Numbered from the stretch's first letter, positions 3,689-32,352 are shown. The stretch is DNA of 44,526 nucleotides from Escherichia phage vB_EcoP-101117UKE2 (MZ234019.1), one strand, 5' to 3'. Notes: generated from the letters alone by a model not told the origin. Made by a program: numbers and translations.

Positions 3689-3704
3689 GTCTCACATGTG
3701 AGAC
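3689..3704. repeat. 16-bp perfect palindrome GTCTCACATGTGAGAC (copy 1)
   Basis: Exact self-complementary 16-mer immediately upstream of phage promoter. Confidence 0.9.
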
Positions 3705-4072: not shown

Positions 4073-6061
4073 ATGGCTATTATTCAGAATGTACCGTGTC
4101 CTGCCTGTCAAAAGAATGGACATGATATTACTGGCAACCATCTTATGATATTTGAGGATGGCGCTGGTTACTGTAATCGTGGTCACTTCCATGATAACGG
4201 TAAGCCTTACTATCATAAGCCAGAGGGCGGCATCGAGATAACCGAATTGCCCATTACTGGCAATATCAAATACACACCTTCTCAATTCAAAGAAATGGAG
4301 AAGGAAGGGAAGATAAGCGACCCTAAGCTACGCGCCATCGCACTAGGTGGTATGCGTATGAAAGACCGTTGGGAGGTCATGAATGAGCAAGAAAGGGCAG
4401 AGCAAGAAGCAGAGTGGAAACTTGATGTTGAATGGTTCCTCACGCTTAAGCGTAAGAATCTTGTTTCCCGACACATTCGCGGCGACATTTGCGCATTGTA
4501 TGATGTACGTGTCGGACATGATGAAGAGGGTAGAGTCTCACGGCATTACTATCCACGCTTCGAGAAAGGTGAACTAGTAGGCGCTAAGTGTCGCACATTA
4601 CCTAAAGACTTTAAGTTTGGTCATTTAGGTAAACTATTTGGTATGCAAGATCTTTTCGGTATGAATACTTTGTCTCACGTGTTAGACAAGGGAAGACGAA
4701 AGGATTGCTTGCTTATTGTGGGTGGGGAACTGGATGCACTAGCAGCGCAGCAGATGCTCCTTGATTCTGCCAAGGGTACTAAGTGGGAAGGGCAGCCTTA
4801 CCATGTATGGTCTGTCAATAAGGGTGAATCTTGCCTTGAAGAAATTGTGCAGAACCGTGAGCACATCGCCCAATTCAAGAAGATTATTTGGGGCTTTGAT
4901 GGGGATGAGGTAGGACAGAAGCAGAACCAACAAGCGGCTCGCCTGTTTCCTGGCAAATCCTACATCCTTGAATACCCTTCTGGTTGCAAAGATGCCAACA
5001 AGGCATTGATGGCTGGTAAAGCCAAAGAATTTGTGGATGCTTGGTTTAATGCAAAGCCATCTGATGAAGTCTTTGGTAGCCAGATTAAATCTATCGCATC
5101 TCAAAGGGATAAGCTCAAGGCTGCACGTCCAGAACAAGGGCTGTCATGGCCTTGGCCTAAGCTAAACAAGGTAACGCTGGGTATCCGTAAGAATCAGCTT
5201 ATCATTGTAGGTGCAGGCTCTGGTGTGGGTAAGACTGAGTTCCTCCGTGAAGTAGTTAAGCATCTCATTGAAGAACACGGTGAATCTGTAGGCATCATTT
5301 CTACAGAAGACCCGATGGTTAAGGTGTCCCGTGCTTTTATCGGTAAGTGGATTGATAAGCGTATTGAGCTACCGCCAACCAATGACCCGAAAGAAGATGG
5401 ATACCGTGAGGTGTTCGACTATACCGAGGAAGAGGCTAACGCTGCCATTGACTATGTAGCTGATACAGGGAAGCTGTTTGTGGCTGACCTAGAGGGTGAC
5501 TATTCAATGGAGAAGGTAGAGCAGACCTGCCTTGAGTTTGAGGCTATGGGTATTTCTAATATCATCATTGATAACTTAACGGGGATTAAATTAGATGAGC
5601 GTGCTTTTGGTGGGAAGGTTGGTGCACTTGATGAATGCGTCAAGCGGATTGGCACTATCAAGGACAGACATGCAGTTACTATCTTCCTTGTCTCGCACCT
5701 TACTCGCCCTGCGGGAAACCGAGTCCAACACGAAGAAGGTGGCGAGGTTATCCTTTCTGACTTCCGAGGCTCAGGGGCTATCGGATTCTGGGCATCTTAC
5801 GCCTTGGGGATTGAGCGTAACACAAGAGCTGAAACGCTTGACGAAAGGACTACCACGTACATCTCATGTGTCAAAGATCGCGACCAAGGTATCTTCACCG
5901 GAACCAAGATTATGCTTAAGGGTGACATTCAAACCGGACGTTTGAGAGAACCACAGGCTAGAACAAGGTCATTTGATACAGGCGAAGCAAGGCAACAAGA
6001 AGTACCGGATTTACCGGACACTATAGAAGAGACAACCTTTGATGATGAACAGGAGTTTTGA
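4073..6061 (+). CDS. DNA primase/helicase (T7 gp4-like, 662 aa)
   Basis: N-terminal Cys4 zinc ribbon (CPACQ...CNRGHFH), helicase Walker A GAGSGVGKT, acidic C-terminus ending DDEQEF. Confidence 0.95.
   Translation: MAIIQNVPCPACQKNGHDITGNHLMIFEDGAGYCNRGHFHDNGKPYYHKPEGGIEITELPITGNIKYTPSQFKEMEKEGKISDPKLRAIALGGMRMKDRWEVMNEQERAEQEAEWKLDVEWFLTLKRKNLVSRHIRGDICALYDVRVGHDEEGRVSRHYYPRFEKGELVGAKCRTLPKDFKFGHLGKLFGMQDLFGMNTLSHVLDKGRRKDCLLIVGGELDALAAQQMLLDSAKGTKWEGQPYHVWSVNKGESCLEEIVQNREHIAQFKKIIWGFDGDEVGQKQNQQAARLFPGKSYILEYPSGCKDANKALMAGKAKEFVDAWFNAKPSDEVFGSQIKSIASQRDKLKAARPEQGLSWPWPKLNKVTLGIRKNQLIIVGAGSGVGKTEFLREVVKHLIEEHGESVGIISTEDPMVKVSRAFIGKWIDKRIELPPTNDPKEDGYREVFDYTEEEANAAIDYVADTGKLFVADLEGDYSMEKVEQTCLEFEAMGISNIIIDNLTGIKLDERAFGGKVGALDECVKRIGTIKDRHAVTIFLVSHLTRPAGNRVQHEEGGEVILSDFRGSGAIGFWASYALGIERNTRAETLDERTTTYISCVKDRDQGIFTGTKIMLKGDIQTGRLREPQARTRSFDTGEARQQEVPDLPDTIEETTFDDEQEF
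6009..6031 (+). promoter_or_regulatory. phage RNAP promoter ATTTACCGGACACTATAGAAGAG embedded in 3' end of primase gene
   Basis: Full consensus match inside coding sequence. Confidence 0.75.
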
Positions 6062-6222
6062 TGGAAATTATTAAACCAGTATTGAATATCGGTATTGACA
6101 TCCTATTCATGCTTGTGATCGCAGATTATGCTGCACGATATGGATTCAAGAAAGCTGTGAAACTTATCGTTGCATCTGGTTTTCTTATGTCAATGTTCTT
6201 TATTGTAACACGCCTTATCTAG
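6061..6222 (+). CDS. small hydrophobic protein (53 aa), probable membrane protein
   Basis: ATG overlaps primase stop (TGATG); MEIIKPVLNIGIDILFMLVIADYAARYGFKKAVKLIVASGFLMSMFFIVTRLI. Confidence 0.4.
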   Translation: MEIIKPVLNIGIDILFMLVIADYAARYGFKKAVKLIVASGFLMSMFFIVTRLI

Positions 6223-6239
6223 TGTATTTATCAGGGCTT

Positions 6240-6255
6240 GTCTCACATGTGAGAC
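6240..6255. repeat. 16-bp perfect palindrome GTCTCACATGTGAGAC (copy 3)
   Basis: Exact copy; flanking bases extend the potential stem. Confidence 0.9.
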
Positions 6256-6294
6256 AGGCTCTTATTAAGTACATTAAATAACTGGAGATTGATT

Positions 6295-6474
6295 ATGTAT
6301 AAATTAGTATTGAATGTAGGTGATTATGTTCGTAACATCAATGCAACCTCACGTAGATATCGTTGCCGTGGTACTGTGACTAATGTAAGTGAAAACAGCT
6401 ACTATGTAGAGTACAGTAATGGTATTAGACAGGCTTATCAAAAGGGAAAACAGCTACTATGTAGAGTACAGTAA
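6295..6474 (+). CDS. N-terminal fragment of hypothetical protein, truncated by frameshift from a 55-bp tandem duplication
   Basis: ATG 6295 with GGAGA RBS; ends ...ENSYYVEYSNGIRQAYQKG then out-of-frame stop. Confidence 0.5.
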   Translation: MYKLVLNVGDYVRNINATSRRYRCRGTVTNVSENSYYVEYSNGIRQAYQKGKQLLCRVQ

Positions 6475-6501
6475 TGGTATTAGACAGGCTTATCAAAAGG
6501 A
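6392..6501. repeat. perfect direct tandem duplication, 2 x 55 bp
   Basis: AAAACAGCTACTATGTAGAGTACAGTAATGGTATTAGACAGGCTTATCAAAAGG present twice back to back with period 55. Confidence 0.95.
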
Positions 6502-7072
6502 ATCAGCACATAACTACCTTGAGAAGATTGGAGAGGTAAGCAATCAATGTAAGTGCGTACACGATGAGATTTGCGATAAGTGTGCACGTCAGGCAGTTAA
6601 AGCCTTTACCTTTGCTCAACGTTATGGTTCTATGTATGGTGCTGGTCACAAGACCATTGTAGAAGCAGCTTGGAAGACATTACAGCTTGAGCGTTCAAAT
6701 GGACGACGCACCACACTTAAGAAAGAGCGCCGCAATGTAATCACTGGTAAGACTCAAAGTGAGATGGTTAAGCTGTGTGGCACGGCACTAGGTGTTACGC
6801 AGTTTAACACTCGTGCTTTAGGTAAATCCACAGGACAAGCTATGGTGAAGATTGGTGAGGCCATGATGCACCCAAATGTACCTGTGCGAATCATGGATGT
6901 TGACCATGCAATCACAGAACATGGTACAACACGGCGTGTAGTTAATAATCATTTTGCCGACACTATAGAAGATATTATCCGTAAGCAAGGATTGAAAGGT
7001 CTTCACATCTTAAATGGTGAAGAGTTGCTGTACCTTCCTATTGTTACCGAAGAAACCTACGTGAATATCTAA
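6419..7072 (+). CDS. hypothetical protein, C-terminal part of gene split by the 55-bp duplication (217-aa ORF as assembled)
   Basis: Re-encodes ENSYYVEYSNGIRQAYQK in the second repeat copy, then continues ESAHNYLEKIGEV...; intact gene about 242 aa if one copy is removed. Confidence 0.55.
   Translation: MVLDRLIKRENSYYVEYSNGIRQAYQKESAHNYLEKIGEVSNQCKCVHDEICDKCARQAVKAFTFAQRYGSMYGAGHKTIVEAAWKTLQLERSNGRRTTLKKERRNVITGKTQSEMVKLCGTALGVTQFNTRALGKSTGQAMVKIGEAMMHPNVPVRIMDVDHAITEHGTTRRVVNNHFADTIEDIIRKQGLKGLHILNGEELLYLPIVTEETYVNI
6951..6973 (+). promoter_or_regulatory. weak promoter-like site ATTTTGCCGACACTATAGAAGAT inside coding sequence
   Basis: Core CACTATAG with three upstream mismatches to consensus. 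Confidence 0.25.
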
Positions 7073-7082
7073 GGAGTTAATC

Positions 7083-7301
7083 ATGACTAAAGTATTGATT
7101 TATATGAGAGGTGCTAATAAATGCTATGCAGTTGTAGCACCTGATGGTGTCAAGCCTTACGGTACTTCAAAAGGATTAGCATTAATAGGTGCTAGTCGCA
7201 GTGCAAGTTTCCAAATGGAACTTTTTGGTCATTGGACTGAAAAAGAATTCCGTGAAGAGTTTAATGTAATTGGCAGCTTTATGGTGAAACATGCAAAATA
7301 A
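7083..7301 (+). CDS. hypothetical protein (72 aa)
   Basis: ATG with AAGGAG RBS. Confidence 0.6.
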   Translation: MTKVLIYMRGANKCYAVVAPDGVKPYGTSKGLALIGASRSASFQMELFGHWTEKEFREEFNVIGSFMVKHAK

Positions 7302-7488
7302 ACATAGCCTTAAGATGTTTGATGGTCACGAAGACCTGCAAGCACAAATTACCAACCAAGCCTTCCTGTTTGCACAGTTAACTATGGCTGAAGCAAAGAA
7401 GAACAGCCTTACTCGTGAGCAGATTATCAAGGAAGGTAGCCGTGGTGCTACTCGTCGTACCAAGAACCACAGAAGTGGTGCTCGCTAG
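7291..7488 (+). CDS. hypothetical protein (65 aa)
   Basis: ORF overlapping upstream stop; weak RBS. Confidence 0.45.
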   Translation: MQNKHSLKMFDGHEDLQAQITNQAFLFAQLTMAEAKKNSLTREQIIKEGSRGATRRTKNHRSGAR

Positions 7489-7505
7489 TCGATAAGTCAA
7501 GGGTT

Positions 7506-7521
7506 GTCTCACGTGTGAGAC
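7506..7521. repeat. 16-bp palindrome variant GTCTCACGTGTGAGAC (copy 4)
   Basis: Perfect palindrome with central CACGTG instead of CACATG. Confidence 0.9.
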
Positions 7522-7552
7522 AGCCTTTCATCATATTGATTGGAGGTGCATT

Positions 7553-7660
7553 ATGCCACGTGATTATGATTCTGATTGGGACTACTATGACTCAATGAAT
7601 CCAAAACCCGAACGTTCAGATGATTACTACGAAACAGAGGCAATGTATGAAAACTATTGA
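7553..7660 (+). CDS. small acidic hypothetical protein (35 aa)
   Basis: ATG with TGGAGG RBS; MPRDYDSDWDYYDSMNPKPERSDDYYETEAMYENY; overlaps DNA polymerase start. Confidence 0.3.
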   Translation: MPRDYDSDWDYYDSMNPKPERSDDYYETEAMYENY

Positions 7661-10193
7661 TTGGAAGAAGGAAGCAGAAGGCCGCATCCTCGTCATGGAC
7701 GCAGAAGCTAAAGGTCTGCTTGATGCTATCCGCTACGGTCATCGTGAAGATGTACACATCATTTGCTGCATGGACTTGCTCACCACTGAGGAGTTCCTCT
7801 TCTTCGACCCATATGAGATGCGTGACCCTGAAGCAAGAGAACGCCTGAAGGAGTGGGAAGGCCATCAAGATGGTGACTTGGTTGACGGTGTTAACTTCCT
7901 GAAACACTGTGAAGCTATCGTGTCACAGAACTTCCTAGGGTATGACGGCCTCCTTTTTGAGAAAGCCTTCCCTGATATCTGGAAAGGTTTTAACTATACC
8001 GAAAGGCGCGGCAAGGGCAGACTCCGTGCCGACCTGTGTCCTGTGCGAGTCATGGACACGCTGGTGATGAGCCGCCTGTTAAACCCCGATAGACGCCTTC
8101 CTCCGCAAGCATATGCCAAAGGTATGGGTAACGTCGCCCCTCATTCAATTGAGGCGCACGGCATCCGTATAGGACGCTATAAGCCGGAGAATGAGGACTG
8201 GTCTAAACTAACTGACCACATGGTTCACCGTGTCCGCGAGGACGTGGCAATCGGTCGTGACCTTTTCCTGTGGCTGTACAATGGAGAGTGGACGGAGCAT
8301 AAACGCCGTGGCGTGAATAAACGCACTGGCCTAGGCATTGAGACAGCCTTCCACATGGAGTCTATTGTGGCGCTGGAGATGAGCCGTCAGGCAGAGCGTG
8401 GATTCCGTCTGGATATTGACAAAGCACTAGCGCGATGCGAAGAACTGGACGCTAAGATTGATGAGACAGTCGCAGCGTTCCGCCCTCACATGCCTATGCG
8501 TATCAAGTCTAAACCTTTTAAACCGGAAGAAAAGAATGAAGTATGCCAACGCGCAAATGAGTATGGAGCTAGCAACAATATACCTACTGTCCTTGACCCC
8601 TCACACTTTCTTCATGCCGAGAGACGAGGAGATCGCAAGACAGTATGGAGTGTCACTACTAAGTCTGGTGATTGGTCGGCTAGCGTCAAGAAAGACTTTC
8701 CTCACCTTAGAGGAAACCGTAATGACACGCCAAGCATCAAGTGGATTGGCGCTTACTCGCCTGTTACTTTCGAAGAGATTCCCTTGGGTAACAGGGATAC
8801 AGTTAAGCAAGTGCTCTATGATTATGGATGGAAAGGTGTTGAATTTAACGATACCGAGCAAGCGCATCTCGATGAGCATGGCGTATTACCCAAACCTTGG
8901 AGTGGAAAGATAAATGAGAAATCCCTTACTTTATGGCAAGAAAGAGCCGCACGTGAAGGTAAAACAGTACCAGATTGGTGCTTGGGTATCGCTGCATGGT
9001 ACATACTCGTATCCCGTCGTGGTCAGATCCTCAACCGTGGTGACGTTGAAGCCTTCGATCAGAAGGGGGCGTGGCCTTCGCAAGCTGGTGTACGAAAGTG
9101 TCGCGGCCTTATACCTGTAGCCTTTAACAAGGAATTAGGAATCAATGCGCAACAATACTACGAGAGGTATGGGTATTGGCCTACGTCTGACAAGGATGAC
9201 GGAGAGTGGCGTGTGCCAGCTATTGCTATTAGTATTGGCACTTCTACGTTCCGTATGCGTCATCGCAATGTGGTTAATATTCCTGCCCGTGGCTTGTACC
9301 CTTTACGTGATTTATTCATAGCAGGTAAAGGTAAGCTAATCCTTGGTTGTGATGGTGCAGGTCTTGAACTACGTGTACTTTCTCACTTCATGAATGACCC
9401 TGAGTACCAAGATATTGTACTGCATGGTGATATACATACTCATAACCAGATGAAGGCGGGTCTTCCTAAGCGTGATATGGCGAAGACATTTATATATGCC
9501 TTCCTTTACGGCTCTGGTATAGCTAACCTTGCAGCAGTGTGCGGTGTTACTGAGGAAGAAATGAAGGAAGTTGTGGCAAGATTCGAGATTGAATTACCAT
9601 CCCTTGCACGTCTTCGTGAGAATGTTATCGCACAAGGCAACAAGTTTGGATACTTACAAGCACCTGACGGGCATTGGGGTCGCATCCGTATGTCTGGTGG
9701 AGAACTTAAAGAGCACACTATGCTTAATGTATTACTCCAAATGACTGGCTCTTTGTGTATGAAATACGCATTGGTCAAAGCGTTTGCAGTGATGCGCAAG
9801 GAAGGTGTGGCCTTAGATAGTATGGGACACCCTTGTGGTGTAGCTAACGTGCACGATGAAATCCAGATGGAAGTACCTGAAGAAGAGGTATTGTATCTTA
9901 ACTACGACCTACCTTTCACCTTAGAGGGGTTTGAAACAGAGAAGGCTGCTGTGAAAGCAGTATTCGATGCAGAGGAGAAACGTGTTCATGTGGATTCTGA
10001 AGGACGTATGTGGTCTGCTGCAAATCTCATTAGTGTTGATGCTGCTGCTGGTGTACTTCATTGCCAGCGTCGTTATCACCGCGCAGGGCATATCATTGCC
10101 GACGCCATGACTTGGGCTGGTCAGTATCTGAAGATGCGTTGCCCGATGGCAGGCGAGTATAAGATTGGCGCAAGCTGGAAGGAAACGCACTAG
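7647..10193 (+). CDS. DNA polymerase, family A (T7 gp5-like)
   Basis: Exo motif VMDAEAKG; pol motifs DGAGLELRVLSHF, KTFIYAFLYGSG, HDEIQMEV; start chosen at ATG 7647 (GAGG RBS), alternative in-frame ATG at 7620. Confidence 0.95.
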   Translation: MKTIDWKKEAEGRILVMDAEAKGLLDAIRYGHREDVHIICCMDLLTTEEFLFFDPYEMRDPEARERLKEWEGHQDGDLVDGVNFLKHCEAIVSQNFLGYDGLLFEKAFPDIWKGFNYTERRGKGRLRADLCPVRVMDTLVMSRLLNPDRRLPPQAYAKGMGNVAPHSIEAHGIRIGRYKPENEDWSKLTDHMVHRVREDVAIGRDLFLWLYNGEWTEHKRRGVNKRTGLGIETAFHMESIVALEMSRQAERGFRLDIDKALARCEELDAKIDETVAAFRPHMPMRIKSKPFKPEEKNEVCQRANEYGASNNIPTVLDPSHFLHAERRGDRKTVWSVTTKSGDWSASVKKDFPHLRGNRNDTPSIKWIGAYSPVTFEEIPLGNRDTVKQVLYDYGWKGVEFNDTEQAHLDEHGVLPKPWSGKINEKSLTLWQERAAREGKTVPDWCLGIAAWYILVSRRGQILNRGDVEAFDQKGAWPSQAGVRKCRGLIPVAFNKELGINAQQYYERYGYWPTSDKDDGEWRVPAIAISIGTSTFRMRHRNVVNIPARGLYPLRDLFIAGKGKLILGCDGAGLELRVLSHFMNDPEYQDIVLHGDIHTHNQMKAGLPKRDMAKTFIYAFLYGSGIANLAAVCGVTEEEMKEVVARFEIELPSLARLRENVIAQGNKFGYLQAPDGHWGRIRMSGGELKEHTMLNVLLQMTGSLCMKYALVKAFAVMRKEGVALDSMGHPCGVANVHDEIQMEVPEEEVLYLNYDLPFTLEGFETEKAAVKAVFDAEEKRVHVDSEGRMWSAANLISVDAAAGVLHCQRRYHRAGHIIADAMTWAGQYLKMRCPMAGEYKIGASWKETH

Positions 10194-10376
10194 TGGATAG
10201 ATTAGATATTGTTTGCTTGTTCTTTACCTTCTTTCTTGTCTTTCTTATGCTTGCTTGTTATGGAAGTATTCAGGTAAATATACCTGATGAAGAGGAAGGG
10301 TACGACTGAGTTATACTCAAGGTCACTTACGAGTGGCCTTTATGAATAACTTACTCCTACTTATTTTGTCTAACAT

Positions 10377-10399
10377 GATTTACTGGACACTATAGAAGG
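10377..10399 (+). promoter_or_regulatory. phage RNAP promoter ATTTACTGGACACTATAGAAGGA
   Basis: Consensus match. Confidence 0.8.
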
Positions 10400-10464
10400 A
10401 AAGCCTAGGTAATCTAGGTTTATAAGGTAGTATAGGTAATTAAGTAAATATAGGAGATATAAAT

Positions 10465-10842
10465 ATGTCTATGGTAACTACTCTGGTATTCGTAGCTCAA
10501 TACTTTCGTGGCCTGGCTAATAAGTTTAAACAGAAAGCAATCTTTGCAATTCAAGAACGTATTAATAAAATTGAAGAAGAACAAGTAGATGTAGAGGAAC
10601 ATCGTAGTTCTCAGATGATTGACCTGCATAATCGTCTGTACAAAGATCGTGATGAGATGCGTCACCGTCATGCGAAGGAAGTTGAAGACATGCTTAACCG
10701 CCATGCGGAAGAACAAGCTAAGTTGGAAACCACTTTCCATGAGGATAAACGTAGCATCGCTCTAGCACATCAAGCTGCATCGGATAGCCTGAAGAAAGAG
10801 ATTGTTATGCTGGAGATTGAGTTAGACAATCTTACCAAATAA
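10465..10842 (+). CDS. hypothetical coiled-coil protein (125 aa)
   Basis: ATG with AGGAG RBS; charged heptad-like sequence. Confidence 0.65.
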   Translation: MSMVTTLVFVAQYFRGLANKFKQKAIFAIQERINKIEEEQVDVEEHRSSQMIDLHNRLYKDRDEMRHRHAKEVEDMLNRHAEEQAKLETTFHEDKRSIALAHQAASDSLKKEIVMLEIELDNLTK

Positions 10843-10863
10843 TTACTGGACACTATAGAACAA
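10841..10863 (+). promoter_or_regulatory. phage RNAP promoter variant AATTACTGGACACTATAGAACAA
   Basis: Core match, overlaps stop of upstream gene. Confidence 0.65.
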
Positions 10864-11004
10864 TAGGTCGGCTTAGTTCGGCCTATGATTGTAAAGTGTT
10901 GAACCTTATTGTGCATCTTGCACAACCCGATACCGTATCGGGCTTTCTAGTGAGTACATGCTTGTGCTCAGTACAAAGCTAACTGACAATAGGAGACTAA
11001 ATAA

Positions 11005-11811
11005 ATGGCACGTGGTGATTTTGATTTTGGTGCTCAAGTTACTAAAGCTGAAGGTAAAGTATTTAAGAACCCAGAAGTAGGTGATCATGAAGCAGTTATC
11101 TCTGGCATCATTCATGTTGGTTCCTTCCAAGACATCTTTAAGAAAGGTAATACCACTGAAGTTAAGAAGCCAGCAAACTTTGTTCTGGTTAAGATTATCC
11201 TGATGGGTGACGATGACAAGAACGAAGATGATTCTCGCATGGAACAATGGATGGCTGTGCCTCTGAAGTCTGGTGATAAGGCAACACTGACTAAGTTCCT
11301 GAATGCAGTTGACCCTAAAGAATTGCTTGGTGGCTTCGATGACTTCATTGGTGAATGCCTGACTGCAACCATGGTTGGCTCTGGTGATAAGAATGACGAT
11401 GGCTCATTCAAGTATGTTAACTGGAAGGGCTTTGGTGGTATGCCTGACAAGCTGAAGAAACTTGTAATTGCTCAGGTTGAAGAAGAAGGTCTGTCTATGA
11501 CAGGTCACATTACCTTTGACAAGCTGACCAAAGAAATCCTTGATGACATTCCTGCTAACTTGGTACGCCAATACTTCCTGAATGAAACCCCTCGTGGTAA
11601 GAACCTGTCTGTTGCTGGTTCTCACGTAGAAGAAATCATTAAAGCTGCTCGTGAAGAAGACCCTGAGTGGAAGAAGGCTAAGAAGAAAGATGACGAGGAT
11701 GCTACTCCAGCTAATCGTAAGTCTCTGGACACTGGCGAGTCTGTTCCACAGGAAGTGCCGGAGGCAGAGGACACTCCTGCACCGGAAATGGATGAAGACG
11801 CGGAATACTAA
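11005..11811 (+). CDS. putative ssDNA-binding protein (268 aa) with acidic C-terminal tail
   Basis: AGGAG RBS; highly biased codon usage; C-terminus ...PEMDEDAEY as in phage SSB tails; function inferred only. Confidence 0.7.
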   Translation: MARGDFDFGAQVTKAEGKVFKNPEVGDHEAVISGIIHVGSFQDIFKKGNTTEVKKPANFVLVKIILMGDDDKNEDDSRMEQWMAVPLKSGDKATLTKFLNAVDPKELLGGFDDFIGECLTATMVGSGDKNDDGSFKYVNWKGFGGMPDKLKKLVIAQVEEEGLSMTGHITFDKLTKEILDDIPANLVRQYFLNETPRGKNLSVAGSHVEEIIKAAREEDPEWKKAKKKDDEDATPANRKSLDTGESVPQEVPEAEDTPAPEMDEDAEY

Positions 11812-11820
11812 GGAGGGATG

Positions 11821-12039
11821 ATGAAGGTACAAATCGTAACCCTGCACTGCAAGAGGGGTATTACAACACTTGGCGGCAATACTTTTCACTCCTTCTCTGA
11901 AGGGGAGACATACGCCGACCTGCACTACATCTGGCGCGATGGACAGCACGTGGTGAACTACAGCGACCCAGCTACGGGGAAACGCCACGGCGTATCGCTT
12001 CCGGCGCATGACATTGCTCAGGTGAACACAGTCTTATAA
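11821..12039 (+). CDS. hypothetical protein (about 72 aa)
   Basis: AGGAGGG RBS; ATG 11821 preferred over 11818 on spacing. Confidence 0.55.
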   Translation: MKVQIVTLHCKRGITTLGGNTFHSFSEGETYADLHYIWRDGQHVVNYSDPATGKRHGVSLPAHDIAQVNTVL

Positions 12040-12040
12040 A

Positions 12041-12056
12041 GTCTCACGTGTGAGAC
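12041..12056. repeat. 16-bp palindrome variant GTCTCACGTGTGAGAC (copy 5)
   Basis: Immediately after upstream stop codon and 16 nt before a promoter. Confidence 0.9.
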
Positions 12057-12071
12057 AAATAGGTGTCCGGT

Positions 12072-12094
12072 ATTTACTGGACACTATAGAAGAG
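12072..12094 (+). promoter_or_regulatory. phage RNAP promoter ATTTACTGGACACTATAGAAGAG
   Basis: Consensus match. Confidence 0.8.
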
Positions 12095-12143
12095 AAGAAT
12101 TTTAATCGGCGATAATGCCATAACTAACAAAGGAGAATTTAAT

Positions 12144-12512
12144 ATGTTCAAGATTGAAACTATCGTAAACCGTGTTGTTAAAGGTGCTGCTCTGGTGTCC
12201 GTTGAATCTTTCATTATCGTCGATGAAGCTGATCAACTGGTAGCTGGCACTAAGGCTTACGATACCCGTGAAGAAGCTCAGGCTAAGATTGACAGCATGG
12301 GTAACTTTGCTGCTGGTCTGGAGTTCGCTCGTGCTTGCTTCCCTGAGCAGGCTGACAAAGCACAGATTGGTAAGGCTAATATCGTAGCTGAATATCTGGA
12401 TTGGGTTGCTGCTGGTAAACCAGTGAAAGAAGCTAAGGCTGAAGAAGCTGAAGCTCCTGCAGTAGAAGAAACCAAAGCAGAAGAAGCTCTGTCTGCTGAA
12501 GAGGAATTTTAA
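12144..12512 (+). CDS. hypothetical abundant protein (122 aa) with acidic C-terminal tail ending EEEF
   Basis: AAGGAG RBS; high-expression codon bias; followed by phage-type terminator. Confidence 0.7.
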   Translation: MFKIETIVNRVVKGAALVSVESFIIVDEADQLVAGTKAYDTREEAQAKIDSMGNFAAGLEFARACFPEQADKAQIGKANIVAEYLDWVAAGKPVKEAKAEEAEAPAVEETKAEEALSAEEEF

Positions 12513-12518
12513 TTGATG

Positions 12519-12552
12519 CCCTGTCTGCCTTAGTGTAGGCAGGGTCTTTTGT
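12519..12552 (+). terminator. phage-type (T-phi-like) terminator hairpin
   Basis: Stem CCCTGTCTG/TAGGCAGGG, 8-nt loop, then TCTTTTGTG; near-identical in architecture to element at 21622. Confidence 0.55.
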
Positions 12553-12576: not shown

Positions 12577-12870
12577 ATGCCGACTATTGAAGAACGTTTC
12601 CTGATTCACGTAGACTTCTCACCCATACATCTTGGTTATCTTATCACTATTCTCTTAGGGGAGGAGGTTTATCTACATAATTACCTTATACCTGAATATG
12701 TATGTTTTAGGGATAAGATACACCCGCTTACTTGGGCACAAGAGTGGCTGCGTGAACATGTGCTGAAGGAGTGGCCTACATGCGACCAAACTTCGACTTC
12801 GGAGCTACAGTATCGGAAGACAATAATCTCATCCTGTGGCCGACTGAAGGTGAGAGAATCGCTCTCATAG
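12577..12870 (+). CDS. hypothetical protein (97 aa), overlaps exonuclease start
   Basis: ATG with GGAGA RBS; 3' part overlaps the next gene in another frame. Confidence 0.4.
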   Translation: MPTIEERFLIHVDFSPIHLGYLITILLGEEVYLHNYLIPEYVCFRDKIHPLTWAQEWLREHVLKEWPTCDQTSTSELQYRKTIISSCGRLKVRESLS

Positions 12871-13808
12871 ATGCTGACATGTTACCTTATATCGTAGGGT
12901 ACACAATCAGTGACATGACTTATGTACGAGCCACAACTCGTGTTAAGTCAGGACAAGTCCAATCAATCAAAGATACACCTGAGTGTAAGCAAGCATGTGA
13001 CCGTGTGAACTCCTTGCTTAACTCTTGGGTGTATGCAGCAGAGTGTGATGCAGCTAAGCTATTCATGACAAAATCAGAAGCTAACTTCCGTGTTCGCCTA
13101 GCATTCACCAAGCCTTATAAGGGTCAACGTAAGACCGAGAAGCCTCCATTCTTCTATGAATTACGAGAGCATCTCTTAGAGGTGCATGGTGCAATCTTGG
13201 CTGATGGTGAGGAAGCAGATGACCTAATGAGCATCGCACAATGGGACAGCCATCGCCGCTTCCAGCAAGATACAGGTAACGAGTTCCCTATCGGTAGTCC
13301 AGAGCATAAAGCATTCTCTGATACTTGCATCGTTTCCTTAGATAAGGATTTGATGATTGTTCCCGGTTGGCATCTACTGCCGGGAGGTGAGAAGAAATGG
13401 GTAGAGCCTATGGGTTGGCTTGAGCTACGCCGCAAGGCTAATGGTCAAGTGAAAGACCTTAAAGGTGCTGGCCTCATGTTCCATTATGCACAGATGATTA
13501 TCGGTGATGACATAGATAATTATGCTGGCATACCTGGGCGTGGAGCTAAATATGCCTATGATCTTCTCAAAGATTGCAAGACAGAGAAAGAGTTGTACAT
13601 GGCAGTGCTTGGTGCTTACAAGGCTAAGTTCGGACATGGACAAGTTAAGATTAAGAATTACCGAGGTGGTTATCGTATCGGCAAGGCTTTTGATCTCATG
13701 CTTGAATGTGGTCGCCTAGCTCACATGGCGAGATTCAAAGGTGATATATGGCGAGCCGATAAGAATGAAATCTTATGGGGAGAAGGTGATGGATGGCTAG
13801 TAAACTAA
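12780..13808 (+). CDS. 5'-3' exonuclease (T7 gp6-like, FEN family)
   Basis: Motifs IALIDADML, SLDKDLMIVPG, GDDIDNYAGIPGRG matching T7 gp6; ATG 12780 with AAGGAG RBS (track GTG 12771). Confidence 0.9.
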   Translation: MRPNFDFGATVSEDNNLILWPTEGERIALIDADMLPYIVGYTISDMTYVRATTRVKSGQVQSIKDTPECKQACDRVNSLLNSWVYAAECDAAKLFMTKSEANFRVRLAFTKPYKGQRKTEKPPFFYELREHLLEVHGAILADGEEADDLMSIAQWDSHRRFQQDTGNEFPIGSPEHKAFSDTCIVSLDKDLMIVPGWHLLPGGEKKWVEPMGWLELRRKANGQVKDLKGAGLMFHYAQMIIGDDIDNYAGIPGRGAKYAYDLLKDCKTEKELYMAVLGAYKAKFGHGQVKIKNYRGGYRIGKAFDLMLECGRLAHMARFKGDIWRADKNEILWGEGDGWLVN

Positions 13809-15932: not shown

Positions 15933-16876
15933 ACATCTTCCAATTCCTAGGCCTTCCAGAAGATCACCGCAATCATCCATTCATGCTGGTGAAACATCGC
16001 GGTGAAGTTCCTGAGAAGAAATTAACTTTTCCATGTTATGCACAGGTGAAACGAGATGGTATATTCAGTGCTGTTGTGGTGCGTAATGATGGTGCTGTTG
16101 CCATCTTTGGTCGTACTGGTAAGAAGCTCGCAAATGTTGAAGCCTTGGAAAAGACATTTAGTGTATTTCCTGTCGGGTTGTATCTTGGTGAGTTGCAATC
16201 TATGGCTGTTGATGTTTATCTTGAAGCTCTATCAGGAGTGGTAAACCCTAATCGTACAGAGCCACTTGATTTCATAGGCCAGCAGATTAAAGACAACCTG
16301 TATATCGACTTCTTCGATATGTTAACCATTAAGGCATTCCATGACGGATTCACTGATGTTTCTTATCTCAAACGTTACGATGCTTTATATCGTCGCATCG
16401 GCACTCATCTTAGCGGGTACAACGCTATCCTTCCTATTACTCCTTGCCATAATGAGCGAGAAGTTGAAGCATTTGCGCAAGAGCAAATAGATGCAGGCCG
16501 AGAGGGTGCTGTGTTTAAACTGGACTGCGATTACGAAGCAGGCCATAAAGGTTATCGTCAGACTAAAGAAGTCCGTAAGGTAACTTATGACCTTACTTGT
16601 ATTGGCTTTGAAGAAGGCAAAGGTAAGTACAAGGGTAAGGTAGCTAACCTCATTTTCAAATGGAAAGGAGGCAAGACAATCAAAGCTATGCTAGGTAAGG
16701 GGTGGACTCATGCAGATGCAGAACAGATGTTCCATGATATTAAACATGGCGGACGATTGAATGTCATTGGTAAAATCTTTGAAGTCAAAGGTCTTCAGGA
16801 TTCAAGCAAGGGCAACATTCGTCAGCCCAAAGCGGGAGAATTAAGACATGACAAAGATGAACCAGATTTCTTTTGA
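15929..16876 (+). CDS. ATP-dependent DNA ligase (315 aa)
   Basis: Adenylation motif AQVKRDG (KxDG), EGAVFK; GGAGG RBS. Confidence 0.9.
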   Translation: MNIFQFLGLPEDHRNHPFMLVKHRGEVPEKKLTFPCYAQVKRDGIFSAVVVRNDGAVAIFGRTGKKLANVEALEKTFSVFPVGLYLGELQSMAVDVYLEALSGVVNPNRTEPLDFIGQQIKDNLYIDFFDMLTIKAFHDGFTDVSYLKRYDALYRRIGTHLSGYNAILPITPCHNEREVEAFAQEQIDAGREGAVFKLDCDYEAGHKGYRQTKEVRKVTYDLTCIGFEEGKGKYKGKVANLIFKWKGGKTIKAMLGKGWTHADAEQMFHDIKHGGRLNVIGKIFEVKGLQDSSKGNIRQPKAGELRHDKDEPDFF

Positions 16877-17063
16877 TAGTATGAAGGCGACTCGTGCTGT
16901 TGAGGTAGCAGAAGCTATCTTTGAAACTTTATCTTGCGGCATGGAAGTGCCATATACTTTACTGGCTGATGCAGAAGAACTTGGTCTTTCTGTAGAAGCT
17001 ATCCAAGAGAAAGTTGAGGAACTCTATGGTACAGACGAAGAAGAAACCGACGATTTCATTTGA
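16848..17063 (+). CDS. hypothetical acidic protein (71 aa)
   Basis: ATG with GGAGA RBS. Confidence 0.5.
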   Translation: MTKMNQISFDSMKATRAVEVAEAIFETLSCGMEVPYTLLADAEELGLSVEAIQEKVEELYGTDEEETDDFI

Positions 17064-28548: not shown

Positions 28549-31500
28549 ATGGTTGATAGTATTAACCAAAACTGGGTGGCGGTGACTCAACGCAAGTTAC
28601 CGCCTACCTTCTCTCAAATTGCTGAAGCTGAGCGTAAGGCTGAAGCCCAGAGAGCTAATGATAAAGTGTTTCAAACAGCAATAGAAAGTGAGTGGGCTTT
28701 ATATGGCGGACAACGTGCCTATGAACGCCACACTACAGAGTTTGCTGAACAAGAAGGCTATGAAGTGCCTGAGTCAACTAAGGATGAGTTATCCAAGTTG
28801 TATGGGTATGAAATAGCGCAAGACATAGTTAAGAATGTAAAGTCTCCAGAAGAGTTGCAATTCCGTATGTCTAATGCTGCTGCTGATAAAGACAGAGCAG
28901 ACATCTTAGCACGTAATGGTTTCACGGGTTTCAGCGCGCAGATTGCTGCTGGCATCCTTGACCCTGTAGGTTGGGCTGCATCCTTAGTGGCTGCGCCTGT
29001 AGCGGGTGCTGTCAAAGTAGGTAGGCTAGGTAGGATTATCAAGACGGCTGCCTTATCAGGTGCTGAAAATGCTGCATTAGAAGCTATACTTGCACAAGGT
29101 GATTACCAGCGAGGGGTTGATGATGTACTGGCTGCTGCCGGATTTGGTATGATTATGGGCGGCACTATTGGTGCTGCAACCAGAGAGCGCATAGCCAGTG
29201 CTGGTTCTCGTACAGCGGCAGAACGAGCAGATGCTGTAGTTGATGACTTGGACACTGTAGTAAAAGGTGCTGATGAATTTGACTCGTCTGCGGCTCGTGC
29301 TGTACGTGAAGCTATGGAATATGACGCGTATATGGCAGCGCGTAATTACGAACCACTTCGTGCAAGAGAGGTAGATGCAGACATGGCGATTCTGTCTCAC
29401 ACAGATAATTTGAAAGCCAATGCATCGGTAAGGATGAGTGCTAGTGAGAAAGGGCAACTGAAGAAGCAGATACGTCAGCTTGAAGCAGAAGCAGCAACAC
29501 TTAAAGGGAAGAAGATAGACACTGTAGCGGAAGCTGCGGCTGCTAAGGGTGCACCTAAATCTGCTGCTGACAGATTAGATTTGGATGTTCAGAAGAAAGC
29601 ATTAGCACGTAGATTTGATGAACCACTGGCAGACTTACAAGCGCGTCTTGATGAGTTGAATGCTAAATTGTCTCGTGTAAACAATGTAGGCAAAGCCAAG
29701 GAAGAGCTTAAGAGATTCTCATCGCTATCTCGTGAAGAGCAAATAAAGGAGTTAGGTCTAGACGCACCAGTGCGCAAGGTAGAGATGACCCGTGCCGTGC
29801 GAGATGCAATTGACGCAATCCGTGCCGAGCGTAAGAAGACGCCTACCGAAATACATGCTGAACAAGTCGCAGAAGATGCAATTAAGCAAAGGGCAGACGA
29901 CTCTGTTGGTGCTAAACGTGTTGAAGGTTCAGAGATTGCAGGTGAACAGTTTGACCTATCTAAAAACATGGAAGAACTTATGGATGACTTGGCACGAGAA
30001 GCATACCAGTCAGAGGTGCGGCCTATTAATCTTAAGGGTTTAGGTTCAGTGTCTTCTGTGATTCTTAACTCAGAGAATCCTGTGTTCCGAGGCCTAGGTC
30101 TTCGTCTGCTTGAAAATGCTCAAGGTGGTGCATATCAAGGTAAGACAGCTTCTATCTTATCAGATGTGTATGGCAACCTTATTCGTCATGCAGAACGTAA
30201 CAGATACAATGATGGCTTCTCTCAGTTCATCAAAGATAATAACCTACGTGCGGTAGATTATCTTAACCCTGCAACGACAAGGGATTTCAATAATCAGATT
30301 TATACAGCAATTGTTCGTGGCATACCAGAAGATACACCTCGTGGTGTTAAACTGGCAGCCGAAGGTATTGCAGATAAGCTCAAGAAAGCACTGGAGATTC
30401 GTAAGCAAGCAGGTGAGCGAGGCTTCGAGGATGTGCAATCTGCTAAAGATTATATTCCCGTTATCTACGATGGTATCAAGATCACAGAGGCAGTTAACAA
30501 GTTAGGTAGTAGTGAAGCTGTCATTCACTTGCTATCTAAAGGGTATCAGACAGGCAAGTACAAACTTGGCAAGAAAGCTGCTGATGCACTAGCCAAAGTT
30601 CAGTATATTCGCGCATCTGACTCCACCCTCTCTAGTCGTGTTGCATTCGATAGAGTAGTATCCCAGCAGCAGCAGGCTCAATTGATTGAGGATCTGAAGA
30701 AAGCAGGAGTACCAGACCATATCATTGATAATTTCATTGAAGGTACGGAATTAGCAGAAATGGCTGAATCGGTATCCAATCGAGCTAAAGCTAGCATGGG
30801 TATTAATACGCAAGCCGAATATGGCGGTTTGAAGGTGCAGGATTTGCTTAATACAAACGTAGGCGAGCTAGCTGAGAACTACGGCAAAGAGGCAGCAGGC
30901 GGTGCTGCATTAGCTGCCATGGGTTTCCCCACTCGCCAGTCTGTGCTGAATGCGATAGATGCCGCAGAACGCGCAGGTCGTAATATGGCGGGGTCAAATG
31001 CTAAGGCAATCAAACAGCTTAGAGCTGAGGCAGAAATGCTCAGAGATGCCGTTAAGCTCATTTACGGCAACACTATTGACGCCGACCCTAACTCTGGAAT
31101 TGTCAGAGGCACTCGACGTGTCCGTGAGATTACAGGCTTGTTACGATTGGGTCAAATGGGCTTCGCTCAGATACCAGAACTGGCACGTGCAATCTCTAAG
31201 ATGGGATTAGGTACTGTGCTGAAGTCCATACCTGCCACGAAGTTCTTACGTTCAAGGGCGGCTCGTAAGGGAGGAACAGCTCAAGGTGAATTACTTGAAC
31301 CTGAACTGCGAGAAATGGAGGAACTCTTAGGCTATATCGGGGAAGATAACTGGCTTACAGGGTGGAACGTCCGTCATGATGAGTTCGGAGAAACTGCTGA
31401 TAACCTAGGTAAGCTGTCTGCTATTATTGATAACGGATTAGCTATGGGTAGTAGAATCAACACAATACTCTCTGGATTTAAAGCAGTACAAGGTGGTTCA

Positions 31501-32352
31501 GAGAAAATTGTAGCTCGCTCTATCAATAAGAGATTAAAGCAGCACTTGATGGGTGAGAGACAATTACCTAAAGCAGACCTTGAAGAAGTAGGCCTAAGTG
31601 AAGATGTCATGAAAAGACTTAAGCGTCACTTTGATGACAACCCTCTGTACGCTGAGTACAATGGAGAAAAAGTTCGTATGCTGAACTTTGATGCTATGGA
31701 GCCAGACCTGAGAGAGACAGTGGGTGTTGCTGTGCGAAGAATGTCAGGCCGTCTTATTCAACGTAACTTCATTGGCGATGAAGGTATCTGGATGAATAAA
31801 TGGTGGGGCAAGGCATTAACGCAGTTTAAGTCATTCTCTATTGTCTCTATTGAGAAACAGCTAATCCATGATTTACGAGGTGATAAGATTCAGGCTGCAC
31901 AGATACTTGCATGGTCTACTTTACTAGGTTATGCATCTTATGCACTACAGATGCAGATGCAAGCGATTGGTAGGGAGGATAGAGACAAGTTCTTGAGGGA
32001 TAAGTTTGACACACAGAACATCGCTATGGGTGTCTTTAATAAACTTCCACAAGTTGCAGGCTTTGGTTTAGCTGGTGATGCTTTGGCAACCTTTGGCCTA
32101 ATGCCAGACTCCATGATGCAAGCACCGGGACGCATGGGTTTCCGTCAGCAAGGCTTTGGGGATTTGGTAGCAGGTGCTGGTGTAATAAGTGATACAGTTA
32201 ATTTGTCACAAGCACTGGTTAAGTATGCCAGTGGAGACGATGATGTCTCTACGAGGCAGTTGGTAGACAAGGTTCGTCGCCTTGTTCCTTTGGCAAATAC
32301 TATTGGTGTGGGTCAGATGACTAAAGCCAGTGTAGATTTATTGGAGGATTGA
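28549..32352 (+). CDS. large internal virion (core) protein (gp16-like, 1267 aa)
   Basis: Size and synteny; AGGAGG RBS. Confidence 0.8.
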   Translation: MVDSINQNWVAVTQRKLPPTFSQIAEAERKAEAQRANDKVFQTAIESEWALYGGQRAYERHTTEFAEQEGYEVPESTKDELSKLYGYEIAQDIVKNVKSPEELQFRMSNAAADKDRADILARNGFTGFSAQIAAGILDPVGWAASLVAAPVAGAVKVGRLGRIIKTAALSGAENAALEAILAQGDYQRGVDDVLAAAGFGMIMGGTIGAATRERIASAGSRTAAERADAVVDDLDTVVKGADEFDSSAARAVREAMEYDAYMAARNYEPLRAREVDADMAILSHTDNLKANASVRMSASEKGQLKKQIRQLEAEAATLKGKKIDTVAEAAAAKGAPKSAADRLDLDVQKKALARRFDEPLADLQARLDELNAKLSRVNNVGKAKEELKRFSSLSREEQIKELGLDAPVRKVEMTRAVRDAIDAIRAERKKTPTEIHAEQVAEDAIKQRADDSVGAKRVEGSEIAGEQFDLSKNMEELMDDLAREAYQSEVRPINLKGLGSVSSVILNSENPVFRGLGLRLLENAQGGAYQGKTASILSDVYGNLIRHAERNRYNDGFSQFIKDNNLRAVDYLNPATTRDFNNQIYTAIVRGIPEDTPRGVKLAAEGIADKLKKALEIRKQAGERGFEDVQSAKDYIPVIYDGIKITEAVNKLGSSEAVIHLLSKGYQTGKYKLGKKAADALAKVQYIRASDSTLSSRVAFDRVVSQQQQAQLIEDLKKAGVPDHIIDNFIEGTELAEMAESVSNRAKASMGINTQAEYGGLKVQDLLNTNVGELAENYGKEAAGGAALAAMGFPTRQSVLNAIDAAERAGRNMAGSNAKAIKQLRAEAEMLRDAVKLIYGNTIDADPNSGIVRGTRRVREITGLLRLGQMGFAQIPELARAISKMGLGTVLKSIPATKFLRSRAARKGGTAQGELLEPELREMEELLGYIGEDNWLTGWNVRHDEFGETADNLGKLSAIIDNGLAMGSRINTILSGFKAVQGGSEKIVARSINKRLKQHLMGERQLPKADLEEVGLSEDVMKRLKRHFDDNPLYAEYNGEKVRMLNFDAMEPDLRETVGVAVRRMSGRLIQRNFIGDEGIWMNKWWGKALTQFKSFSIVSIEKQLIHDLRGDKIQAAQILAWSTLLGYASYALQMQMQAIGREDRDKFLRDKFDTQNIAMGVFNKLPQVAGFGLAGDALATFGLMPDSMMQAPGRMGFRQQGFGDLVAGAGVISDTVNLSQALVKYASGDDDVSTRQLVDKVRRLVPLANTIGVGQMTKASVDLLED

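Follow-up and report, generated by a model that had tools for sequence, protein, structure and literature searches.

Conserved acidic C-terminal tails with an aromatic tip on replication-module proteins of an SP6-like phage, including a predicted single-stranded DNA-binding protein

Escherichia phage vB_EcoP-101117UKE2 (MZ234019.1) is a K1E/SP6-like phage (Autographiviridae, Molineuxvirinae, Vectrevirus), and the 44,526-bp stretch analysed here, the window, is its complete genome. We examined the C-termini of proteins from its replication module, which encodes a helicase-primase, a family A DNA polymerase, a 268-aa protein that is probably an SSB (binding protein for single-stranded DNA, ssDNA), a 122-aa acidic protein, a 5'-3' exonuclease and an ATP-dependent DNA ligase (Table 1). 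Among annotated relatives the gene order DNA polymerase, 268-like, 122-like, exonuclease is fixed, with the 122-like gene always between the 268-like and exonuclease genes. The helicase-primase gene, whose GenBank product name is 'primase/helicase protein', encodes an N-terminal Cys4 zinc motif (CPAC...C..GH), a Toprim_2 domain (residues 218-312) and a DnaB_C domain (residues 357-604) in one chain, the arrangement of T7 gp4. Its open reading frame (ORF) terminates in TIEETTFDDEQEF, the final residues being DDEQEF, and it thus shares with gp4 an acidic tail with a terminal Phe (NDTDF in T7). The helicase-primase is a true member of the gp4 family.

Table 1. Genes, tails, motifs and expression signals of the replication module, in window coordinates.
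Feature	Coordinates	Strand	Evidence or remarks
T7 gp4-type bifunctional primase-helicase, 662 aa	4073..6061	+	Pfam Toprim_2 and DnaB_C; PHROG 239 'DNA primase/helicase', E 3.5e-187
Helicase C-terminal tail, last 45 aa	5924..6058	+	pI 4.1; DIQTGRLREPQARTRSFDTGEARQQEVPDLPDTIEETTFDDEQEF
Second tail element, helicase	5969-6022		SFDTGE..QEVP..DT
Family A DNA polymerase, 857 aa, putative receptor of the tails	7620..10193	+	Pfam DNA_pol_A; PHROG 17
Conserved basic loop of the polymerase, residues 683-697	9666-9710	+	DGHWGRIRMSGGELK; adjoins the position of the T7 gp5 front basic patch
Phage RNA polymerase promoter upstream of the 268-aa gene	10841..10863	+	AATTACTGGACACTATAGAACAA; one of 9 consensus matches
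268-aa predicted OB-fold ssDNA-binding protein (SP6 gp18 family)	11005..11811	+	PHROG 862 'unknown function'; ends ...PEMDEDAEY
N-terminal motif of the 268-aa protein	11020..11040	+	FDFGAQV; F6, G9 and A10 invariant or near-invariant
Disordered acidic tail of the 268-aa protein, residues 226-268	11680..11808	+	pI 4.05; ends MDEDAEY; pLDDT mostly <55 over residues 229-268
Second tail element, 268-aa protein	11722-11775		SLDTGE..QEVP..DT
Phage RNA polymerase promoter of the 122-aa gene	12072..12094	+	Sole perfect match to the consensus ATTTACTGGACACTATAGAAGAG
122-aa acidic protein (SP6 gp20 family)	12144..12512	+	PHROG 4429 'unknown function'; ends ...ALSAEEEF
Disordered A/E/P-rich tail of the 122-aa protein, residues 92-122	12417-12509	+	Ends SAEEEF
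Terminator-like hairpin directly 3' of the 122-aa gene	12518..12545	+	11-bp stem, then UCUUUUGUG; -18.3 kcal/mol, z -4.82
5'-3' exonuclease (T7 gp6/FEN type)	12780..13808	+	PHROG 107, E 6.7e-72
N-terminal motif of the exonuclease	12792-12812	+	MRPNFDFGATV; F-D-F-G-A-x-V as in the 268-aa protein
ATP-dependent DNA ligase, 315 aa	15929..16876	+	PHROG 114, E 1.9e-70
Acidic aromatic extension of the ligase	16856-16873	+	DEPDFF, right after the conserved ...LRHDK; ORF ends ...HDKDEPDFF

A sequence-only reading of this DNA had claimed that three replication-module proteins end in an acidic tail with a terminal aromatic residue. The ORF ends DDEQEF, DEDAEY and AEEEF can be read directly, and the effect proved stronger than claimed. 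Using a criterion set after the data had been seen (last residue F, Y or W, with at least three D/E and no K/R in the last six residues), we found such a tail in 4 of the 57 + strand genes: those of the helicase-primase, the 268-aa protein, the 122-aa protein and the DNA ligase, the last being a fourth case that was absent from the earlier list. Internal hexamers of the same proteins satisfied this criterion at 25 of 13,687 positions (0.18%), giving an expectation of 0.10 genes and binomial P values of 4e-6 (at least four genes) and 1.7e-4 (at least three). All four tail-bearing genes fall inside a 20-gene DNA-metabolism block (hypergeometric P = 0.012). We considered whether the tails are a compositional artefact of acidic proteins and rejected this explanation because of the internal-hexamer rate and because the tails are conserved. 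Separately, three small ORFs in the replication block narrowly miss the criterion, at 10193-10309 (...PDEEEGYD), 16848-17063 (...DEEETDDFI) and 7553-7660 (...EAMYENY), and SP6 counterparts of such ORFs look alike (gp15, ...PDYDGNYD; gp26, ...DDQEADYQY).

Conservation across related sequences is a stronger argument for the tails than the chance statistics. The comparison set comprised SP6, Klebsiella F4M1D, Erwinia phiEa100, Vibrio BD5 and phi-A318, E. coli ECBP5, Pseudomonas Alpheus and 43 IMG/VR loci, with orthologues assigned by BLASTP and counts referring to 49 non-redundant tail combinations (loci). An aromatic residue lay within the last four residues in 40/40 helicases (terminal in 36), 49/49 268-like proteins (terminal in 45) and 41/42 122-like proteins (terminal in 37). 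Among ligase orthologues, 34 of 45 non-redundant sequences had a terminal aromatic residue and ended in PD[FY] or GD[FY]. In a separate alignment of 268-aa homologues reaching down to 34% identity, all 27 ended in [EQA][EDV][YF], an additional Ser being present in two. Close homologues of the 122-aa protein ended in EEEF in 120/120 of the matches listed, and among 25 representatives reaching as low as about 30% identity, some 18 ended in E-x-F.

The tails also resemble each other within a genome. In the Klebsiella F4M1D clade the tip is Tyr in the helicase, the 268-like and the 122-like protein, and in the Erwinia, ECBP5 and Vibrio phi-A318 groups it is Phe in all three. Two Uliginvirus-like loci (L051 and L054) place one or two extra residues after the Phe in all three proteins (e.g. 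ETFD, EVFE, AFEG), and a further locus (L049) does so in the helicase and the SSB-like protein. Alpheus is an exception, its helicase having a terminal Tyr and its other two tails being shifted. Position and identity of the aromatic tip therefore tend to change jointly within a genome, a pattern that we regard as suggestive. The tails of the helicase and the 268-aa protein additionally share, here and in close relatives of this phage, a second element about 30 residues before the end, S[FL]DTGE..QEVP..DT (SFDTGEARQQEVPDLPDT versus SLDTGESVPQEVPEAEDT; BLASTP E 4e-6, 12/22 identical), which also occurs in SP6 and F4M1D as [FL]DTGA...VP.

The 122-aa protein had been called abundant, and its expression signals bear this out. 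Its gene forms a self-contained transcription unit (12072-12545) with a perfect-consensus promoter, an AAGGAG ribosome-binding site and a strong terminator; the promoter consensus matched 9 times in the window against 0 expected by chance. The optimal-codon fraction of the gene is 0.765, the genome maximum, compared with 0.683 for the capsid gene, values that are approximate and refer to E. coli optimal codons. The protein has a pI of 4.4 (25 D/E versus 13 K/R). A structure model (predicted local distance difference test, pLDDT, 82) predicted a globular part at residues 1-91, with a long β-hairpin (3-26) and three helices (42-89), and disorder from about residue 92. Conservation peaks in the last helix at KANxVAxYLxW. 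Distant metagenomic members are shorter (84-91 aa), and their tail is reduced to a few residues (...APADEDF, ...EEAETF) or missing; the globular domain is therefore the constant part of the family, and the long tail, judging from these homologues, characterises the enteric, Vibrio and Pseudomonas clades.

Whether this protein is also a replisome partner, as had been suggested, received a mixed answer. Tail conservation, co-variation of its tail and a phage distribution nearly identical to that of the 268-aa family (212 versus 215 phage records, in the same genera) are consistent with it, whereas the domain has no relative informative of function: searches with the globular domain returned no informative structural or sequence relative, and a Pfam scan of 25 members was blank. 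The protein could instead be a decoy, produced in great excess, whose tail mimics an SSB C-terminus or ssDNA, titrating host SSB-interacting enzymes or a defence sensor, or regulating the phage's other tails by competing with them, a role that we consider rather unlikely. The C-terminus of E. coli SSB is DDDIPF, and the SSB family of phage HK620 (DUF669, see below) ends in ...PF too; an acidic aromatic tip is general among SSBs. A decoy would also suit the extreme expression signals, with codon bias above that of the capsid gene, the acidity of the whole protein and the lack of a recognised DNA-binding or enzyme fold. It sits poorly with a gene that is strictly co-inherited at a fixed position inside the replication module, with a tip that co-varies with the phage's own helicase and SSB-like tails and is not host-like, and with hosts that span Vibrio, Pseudomonas and enterics. 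The data nevertheless accommodate a competitor or decoy role roughly as readily as a structural role in the replisome, and they do not separate a polymerase accessory factor, an abundant competitor that regulates tail exchange and a decoy for host SSB partners.

For the 268-aa protein, the sequence-only reading had proposed an SSB and a check by structure prediction for an oligonucleotide/oligosaccharide-binding (OB) fold. The check came out in favour of the proposal: an OB-fold core was predicted, with matches to ssDNA-binding OB structures. AlphaFold2, run with a 27-sequence alignment, gave a mean pLDDT of 79 and values near 90 for the bulk of residues 21-220. The model shows a β-barrel with a helix between strands 3 and 4, the OB topology, followed by a helical subdomain (residues 148-218), and predicts disorder for residues 1-18 (pLDDT <50) and most of 229-268. 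Foldseek searches of the model against viral models retrieved many uncharacterised podophage proteins, including those of phiKMV-like P3_CHA, Ralstonia RSJ2, Acinetobacter AbaP_B3 and Xanthomonas Xp10 (37L), together with two proteins named DUF669 and one named SSB. The two DUF669 matches (Foldseek/BFVD) had E values of 2e-5 and 9e-5 and template-modelling (TM) scores of 0.3 normalised to the query and 0.42-0.48 to the target. The gene has its own promoter and an optimal-codon fraction of 0.661, the third-highest in the genome; both fit a protein required in stoichiometric rather than catalytic amounts.

DUF669 has been linked to the experimentally characterised N4 SSB, and both were proposed to be highly diverged OB-fold SSBs with acidic tails, a family that sequence searches had missed (Kazlauskas et al. 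2016, PMC4889955). The DUF669 protein of HK620 (HkaK) was reported to be an SSB in vitro, and DUF669 genes usually lie beside sak4 recombinase genes (Hutinet et al. 2018, PMC5928155). Besides its Foldseek matches to DUF669 proteins, the 268-aa protein resembles this group in size (N4 SSB, 265 aa) and, in the case of DUF669, in its acidic, aromatic-tipped C-terminus. It differs in that its family has no hidden Markov model (HMM) or profile-profile similarity to the group, in that the N4 SSB tail is basic (...SLFGKK), and in that its gene neighbours encode DNA polymerase and exonuclease, not sak4. PrgE of plasmid pCF10 (PDB 8s4s) is another atypical OB-fold protein, but it is plasmid-encoded, has 128 residues and lacks both the helical subdomain and an acidic aromatic tail. 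As modelled, the 268-aa protein seems closest in fold to atypical OB proteins of the PrgE, DUF669 and N4-SSB kind.

T4 gp32 is built from an N-terminal cooperativity peptide, an OB core and an acidic C-terminal protein-interaction domain. The 268-aa protein is predicted to have a similar three-part layout, with a conserved disordered N-terminal peptide (residues 1-20), an OB core and a disordered acidic tail; no sequence relationship to gp32 was detected, and here the same N-terminal peptide also heads the exonuclease.

Sequence comparisons gave no homology between the 268-aa protein and characterised SSBs. With the 27-sequence alignment, hhalign returned a probability of 0.1% against T7 gp2.5, and 0.1-0.2% against N4 SSB, HK620 HkaK and a 27-sequence DUF669 alignment. 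A Pfam scan of 27 family members at E up to 10 found no relevant family and no DUF669 match, and a PDB sequence search with the 268-aa and 122-aa proteins returned chance matches only. The protein shares architectural features with the gp2.5 family and is not a detectable homologue. Nor did we find any other SSB family, including the bacterial-type Pfam SSB (PF00436), among 10 window proteins scanned with Pfam and 20 with PHROGs. Overall, we consider it probable that the 268-aa protein is the phage SSB.

The sole named family with significant similarity is NCBIfam NF046043 ('phage replication initiation protein, NGO0469 family'), matched by 28 of 32 family members. On this name, the 268-aa protein would be a replication initiator or origin-binding protein, the phage then relying on host SSB, which seems very unlikely. 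The best match (E 2.3e-13, 50.1 bits, ECBP5) covers the whole 171-position profile, yet all scores fall below the curated cut-off of 75 bits, and the window protein itself reaches 18.3 bits (E 0.0014), making it homologous but not an equivalog member. By sequence, it is a distant relative of the uncharacterised NGO0469 family. The NGO0469 name dates from an annotation made in 2007 without experiment, on the strength of two similarities, one to a nanovirus Rep (109 residues, 26% identical) and one to a phage 'primase' (87 residues, 32% identical) (PMC1931599), and nothing experimental supports it in the cited literature. It carries little weight because these are weak similarities to unrelated proteins; given the modelled fold, the name may be wrong and the family SSB-like. 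The predicted OB barrel with a disordered acidic tail, and a codon bias and dedicated promoter suggesting large rather than catalytic amounts, also speak against an initiator. In 185,579 bacterial and archaeal genomes, where NGO0469-like prophage loci were sought, 13 pattern matches were obtained and none was confirmed as a relative, and tblastn with ECBP5, the most NGO0469-like member, found the same podophage group plus one Rhizobium phage and nothing else. The 268-aa family is 'hypothetical' or unannotated in nearly all records listed of 215, with one row labelled 'HNH homing endonuclease'.

At the other end of the 268-aa protein, which begins MARGDFDFGAQV, lies a motif shared with the exonuclease. 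F-[DNE]-[FY]-G-x-x-[VI] opens both proteins in every related genome in which both were found, and the residue after the Gly is identical between them in 25 of 27 non-redundant genome pairs (A/A 16, G/G 6, V/V 2, E/E 1). The helicase tail holds a related SFDTGE. In the 268-aa protein this segment is modelled as disordered, which fits a linear motif. A co-varying terminal peptide on two otherwise unrelated proteins suggests a common docking site or recurrent sequence exchange between the genes. In T4, the N-terminal peptide of gp32 binds the SSB core in cooperative binding. By analogy, one could speculate that the N-terminal peptide here binds the SSB core and that the exonuclease joins SSB-coated DNA by mimicry.

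The comparison with T7 underlying the sequence-only reading was sound. T7 gp2.5 ends in ...ADEDGDF and gp4 in ...WSNDTDF; it is through its acidic tail and terminal Phe that gp2.5 binds T7 DNA polymerase, where the tail anchors to the front basic patch, and the helicase-primase, loss of the Phe abolishes the polymerase interaction and leaves ssDNA binding unaffected, and the tail also mediates stimulation of the gp6 exonuclease (PMC12339929, PMC4124056, bioRxiv 10.64898/2026.02.22.705581). Both phages belong to Autographiviridae and have homologous polymerases, both have a gp4-type helicase-primase and an OB-fold SSB-like protein (here as modelled) with disordered, acidic, aromatic-tipped tails, and both give the SSB gene its own promoter (phi2.5 for T7 gene 2.5). 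In T7, loss of F232 from gp2.5 is dominant lethal. Unlike in T7, the SSB-like protein here is not detectably homologous to gp2.5 and has a Tyr tip, the polymerase lacks the front-basic-patch insertion, the ligase is tailed (T7 ligase ends in ...DNPQEKM), and a third, very abundant tail-bearing protein, of 122 aa, is present that has no T7 counterpart. As the SSB-like protein has no detectable homology to gp2.5, it is to be seen as an analogue, and the T7 mechanism can be carried over by inference only. With this in mind, we lean slightly towards T7-style tail docking in which the SSB is non-homologous and one further abundant component bears a tail.

Under T7-style docking, several fork proteins would carry a short linear docking peptide, a disordered acidic tail with a Phe or Tyr tip, and the tails would dock at a shared basic site or sites, the phage DNA polymerase being the most probable place for them. 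The 268-aa SSB would coat lagging-strand ssDNA, and the polymerase would hand it off or displace it via the tail, with the helicase tail tethering the polymerase. The ligase, through its tail, and the exonuclease, through the shared N-terminal motif, could be recruited for Okazaki-fragment maturation. The 122-aa protein, in large excess, might occupy or compete for the same site, acting as a polymerase accessory factor or as a regulator of tail-mediated exchange.

A candidate site can be named on the polymerase. The window polymerase is 35% identical to T7 gp5 over palm and fingers, and an alignment of 14 SP6-like polymerases with gp5 gave the consensus DG[HR]WGRIR..G..K for a conserved basic loop, DGHWGRIRMSGGELK, at residues 683-697. 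This loop is a candidate tail site, not evidence of binding.

Several points weigh against docking of this kind. The receptor of the tails is something we infer from T7. The T7 front-basic-patch residues (K587, K589, R590 and R591) sit in a 14-residue insertion that SP6-like polymerases do not have, so patch conservation neither supports nor excludes the polymerase as receptor. The ligase tail is missing in 11 of 45 orthologues, and in some distant 122-like proteins the tail is very short or absent (L041, where it is missing, and L048). Co-variation is imperfect: the SP6 helicase ends in QEFNG with the tips of its SSB-like and 122-like proteins terminal, and in Vibrio BD5 the tip is shifted in the 122-like protein only. 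The clades of the comparison set are not independent samples, which makes the co-variation suggestive rather than proof. To these are added the lack of sequence or profile similarity to gp2.5, N4 SSB and DUF669 and the fact that the only named sequence family matching the 268-aa family is one of replication initiation proteins.

The tails might also have no common partner, each being an intramolecular autoinhibitory DNA mimic, folded onto the DNA-binding surface of the protein that bears it, or a solubility tag, with the resemblance arising by convergence; we give this little credence. T7 gp2.5 offers a precedent, since its tail also binds the DNA-binding cleft of gp2.5 in competition with ssDNA. 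A molecular dynamics study reported that deletion of the gp2.5 tail raises ssDNA affinity (PMC12339929), and the helicase, the SSB-like protein and the ligase are all DNA binders. The 122-aa protein has no recognisable DNA-binding domain, though, and neither the second sub-motif shared by the helicase and the SSB-like protein nor the joint aromatic shifts would be expected of self-serving tails. Lastly, T7 gp5.5, which inactivates H-NS, is a class II protein made in very large amounts from a gene between those for DNA polymerase and exonuclease. A reading of the 122-aa protein as its positional analogue, acting on host nucleoid or transcription and not on replication, is highly improbable: slot, similar size and a terminal Phe (gp5.5 ends in ...ATVREVF) agree, but sequences and profiles show no similarity (hhalign probability 0.1%), gp5.5 has no acidic tail and phages with a 122-aa family member infect hosts as dissimilar as Marinomonas and Pseudomonas.

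Beyond T7-style docking, one may imagine a wider scheme, which we think distinctly unlikely, in which SP6-type replisomes are built on two co-evolving linear motifs, with the 122-aa protein serving as a previously unrecognised hub or exchange factor by reading one of them and presenting the other. The first motif would be the acidic aromatic C-terminal tip on the helicase, the SSB-like protein, the 122-aa protein and usually the ligase; the second would be the N-terminal F-[DN]-[FY]-G-x-x-[VI] on the SSB-like protein and the exonuclease, with the related SFDTGE in the helicase tail. The globular domain of the 122-aa protein, on this view a new fold, would read a motif and thereby take the role that a host thioredoxin or a sliding clamp plays elsewhere.

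The tail principle is already known; what is new is a probable functional assignment for a 'hypothetical' family. No assigned SSB in SP6-like phages was found in the literature searched, from which the original 2004 SP6 and K1-5 genome papers were absent; the SP6-like genome papers covered either do not mention SSB or name it only in a methods list. We likewise found no description of a counterpart of the 122-aa tail-bearing protein, of the ligase tail or of the shared N-terminal motif. SP6/K1E/K1-5-like phages are widely used, both for SP6 RNA polymerase and as candidate therapeutics against K1 E. coli, Klebsiella and Salmonella, and an SSB assignment would close an annotation gap. If it is true, a non-homologous SSB obeys the T7 rule of an acidic tail with a terminal aromatic residue, and this docking rule would predate its carrier protein or be more convergent than it. 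Phage SSBs trigger several bacterial defence systems, such as Retron-Eco8 and DARNA, and predictions of defence sensitivity therefore stand to gain from knowledge of the SSB in this group. The 122-aa protein offers a concrete and cheap experimental target: it is likely among the most abundant middle proteins and, judging by its homologues, conserved in about 210 phage records.

PHROGs and several RefSeq records give the name 'polysaccharide chain length determinant protein' to a 125-aa protein (10465-10842) encoded upstream of the SSB-like gene. The label is doubtful, because the sequence is charged and apparently coiled-coil, has no Pfam match and is encoded within the replication module.

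The window and GenBank record MZ234020.1 (vB_EcoP-101118B1) are equal in length, both 44,526 bp, and differ solely in the position of a 55-bp tandem duplication, so that window coordinates equal MZ234020.1 coordinates plus 55 from 6446 to about 31050. In the window, 6391-6445 recurs perfectly at 6446-6500, a duplication missing from MZ234020.1 that splits the 240-aa CDS 007 of the latter into ORFs 6289-6474 and 6419-7072. MZ234020.1 has its own 55-bp tandem duplication at 30940-30994 in the gp16-like gene, which is divided into two CDS there and is a single ORF (28549-32352) in the window. Since 55 is a common assembler k-mer, these differences look like an assembly or rotation artefact rather than biology.

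Finally, the window holds six copies of a perfect 16-bp palindrome, GTCTCAC[A/G]TGTGAGAC (at 3689, 3872, 6240, 7506, 12041 and 28499), with 0 expected by chance. All six fall between called ORFs, two of them directly upstream of phage promoters (3707 and 12072), and the palindrome may be an RNA-processing hairpin or a protein-binding site.

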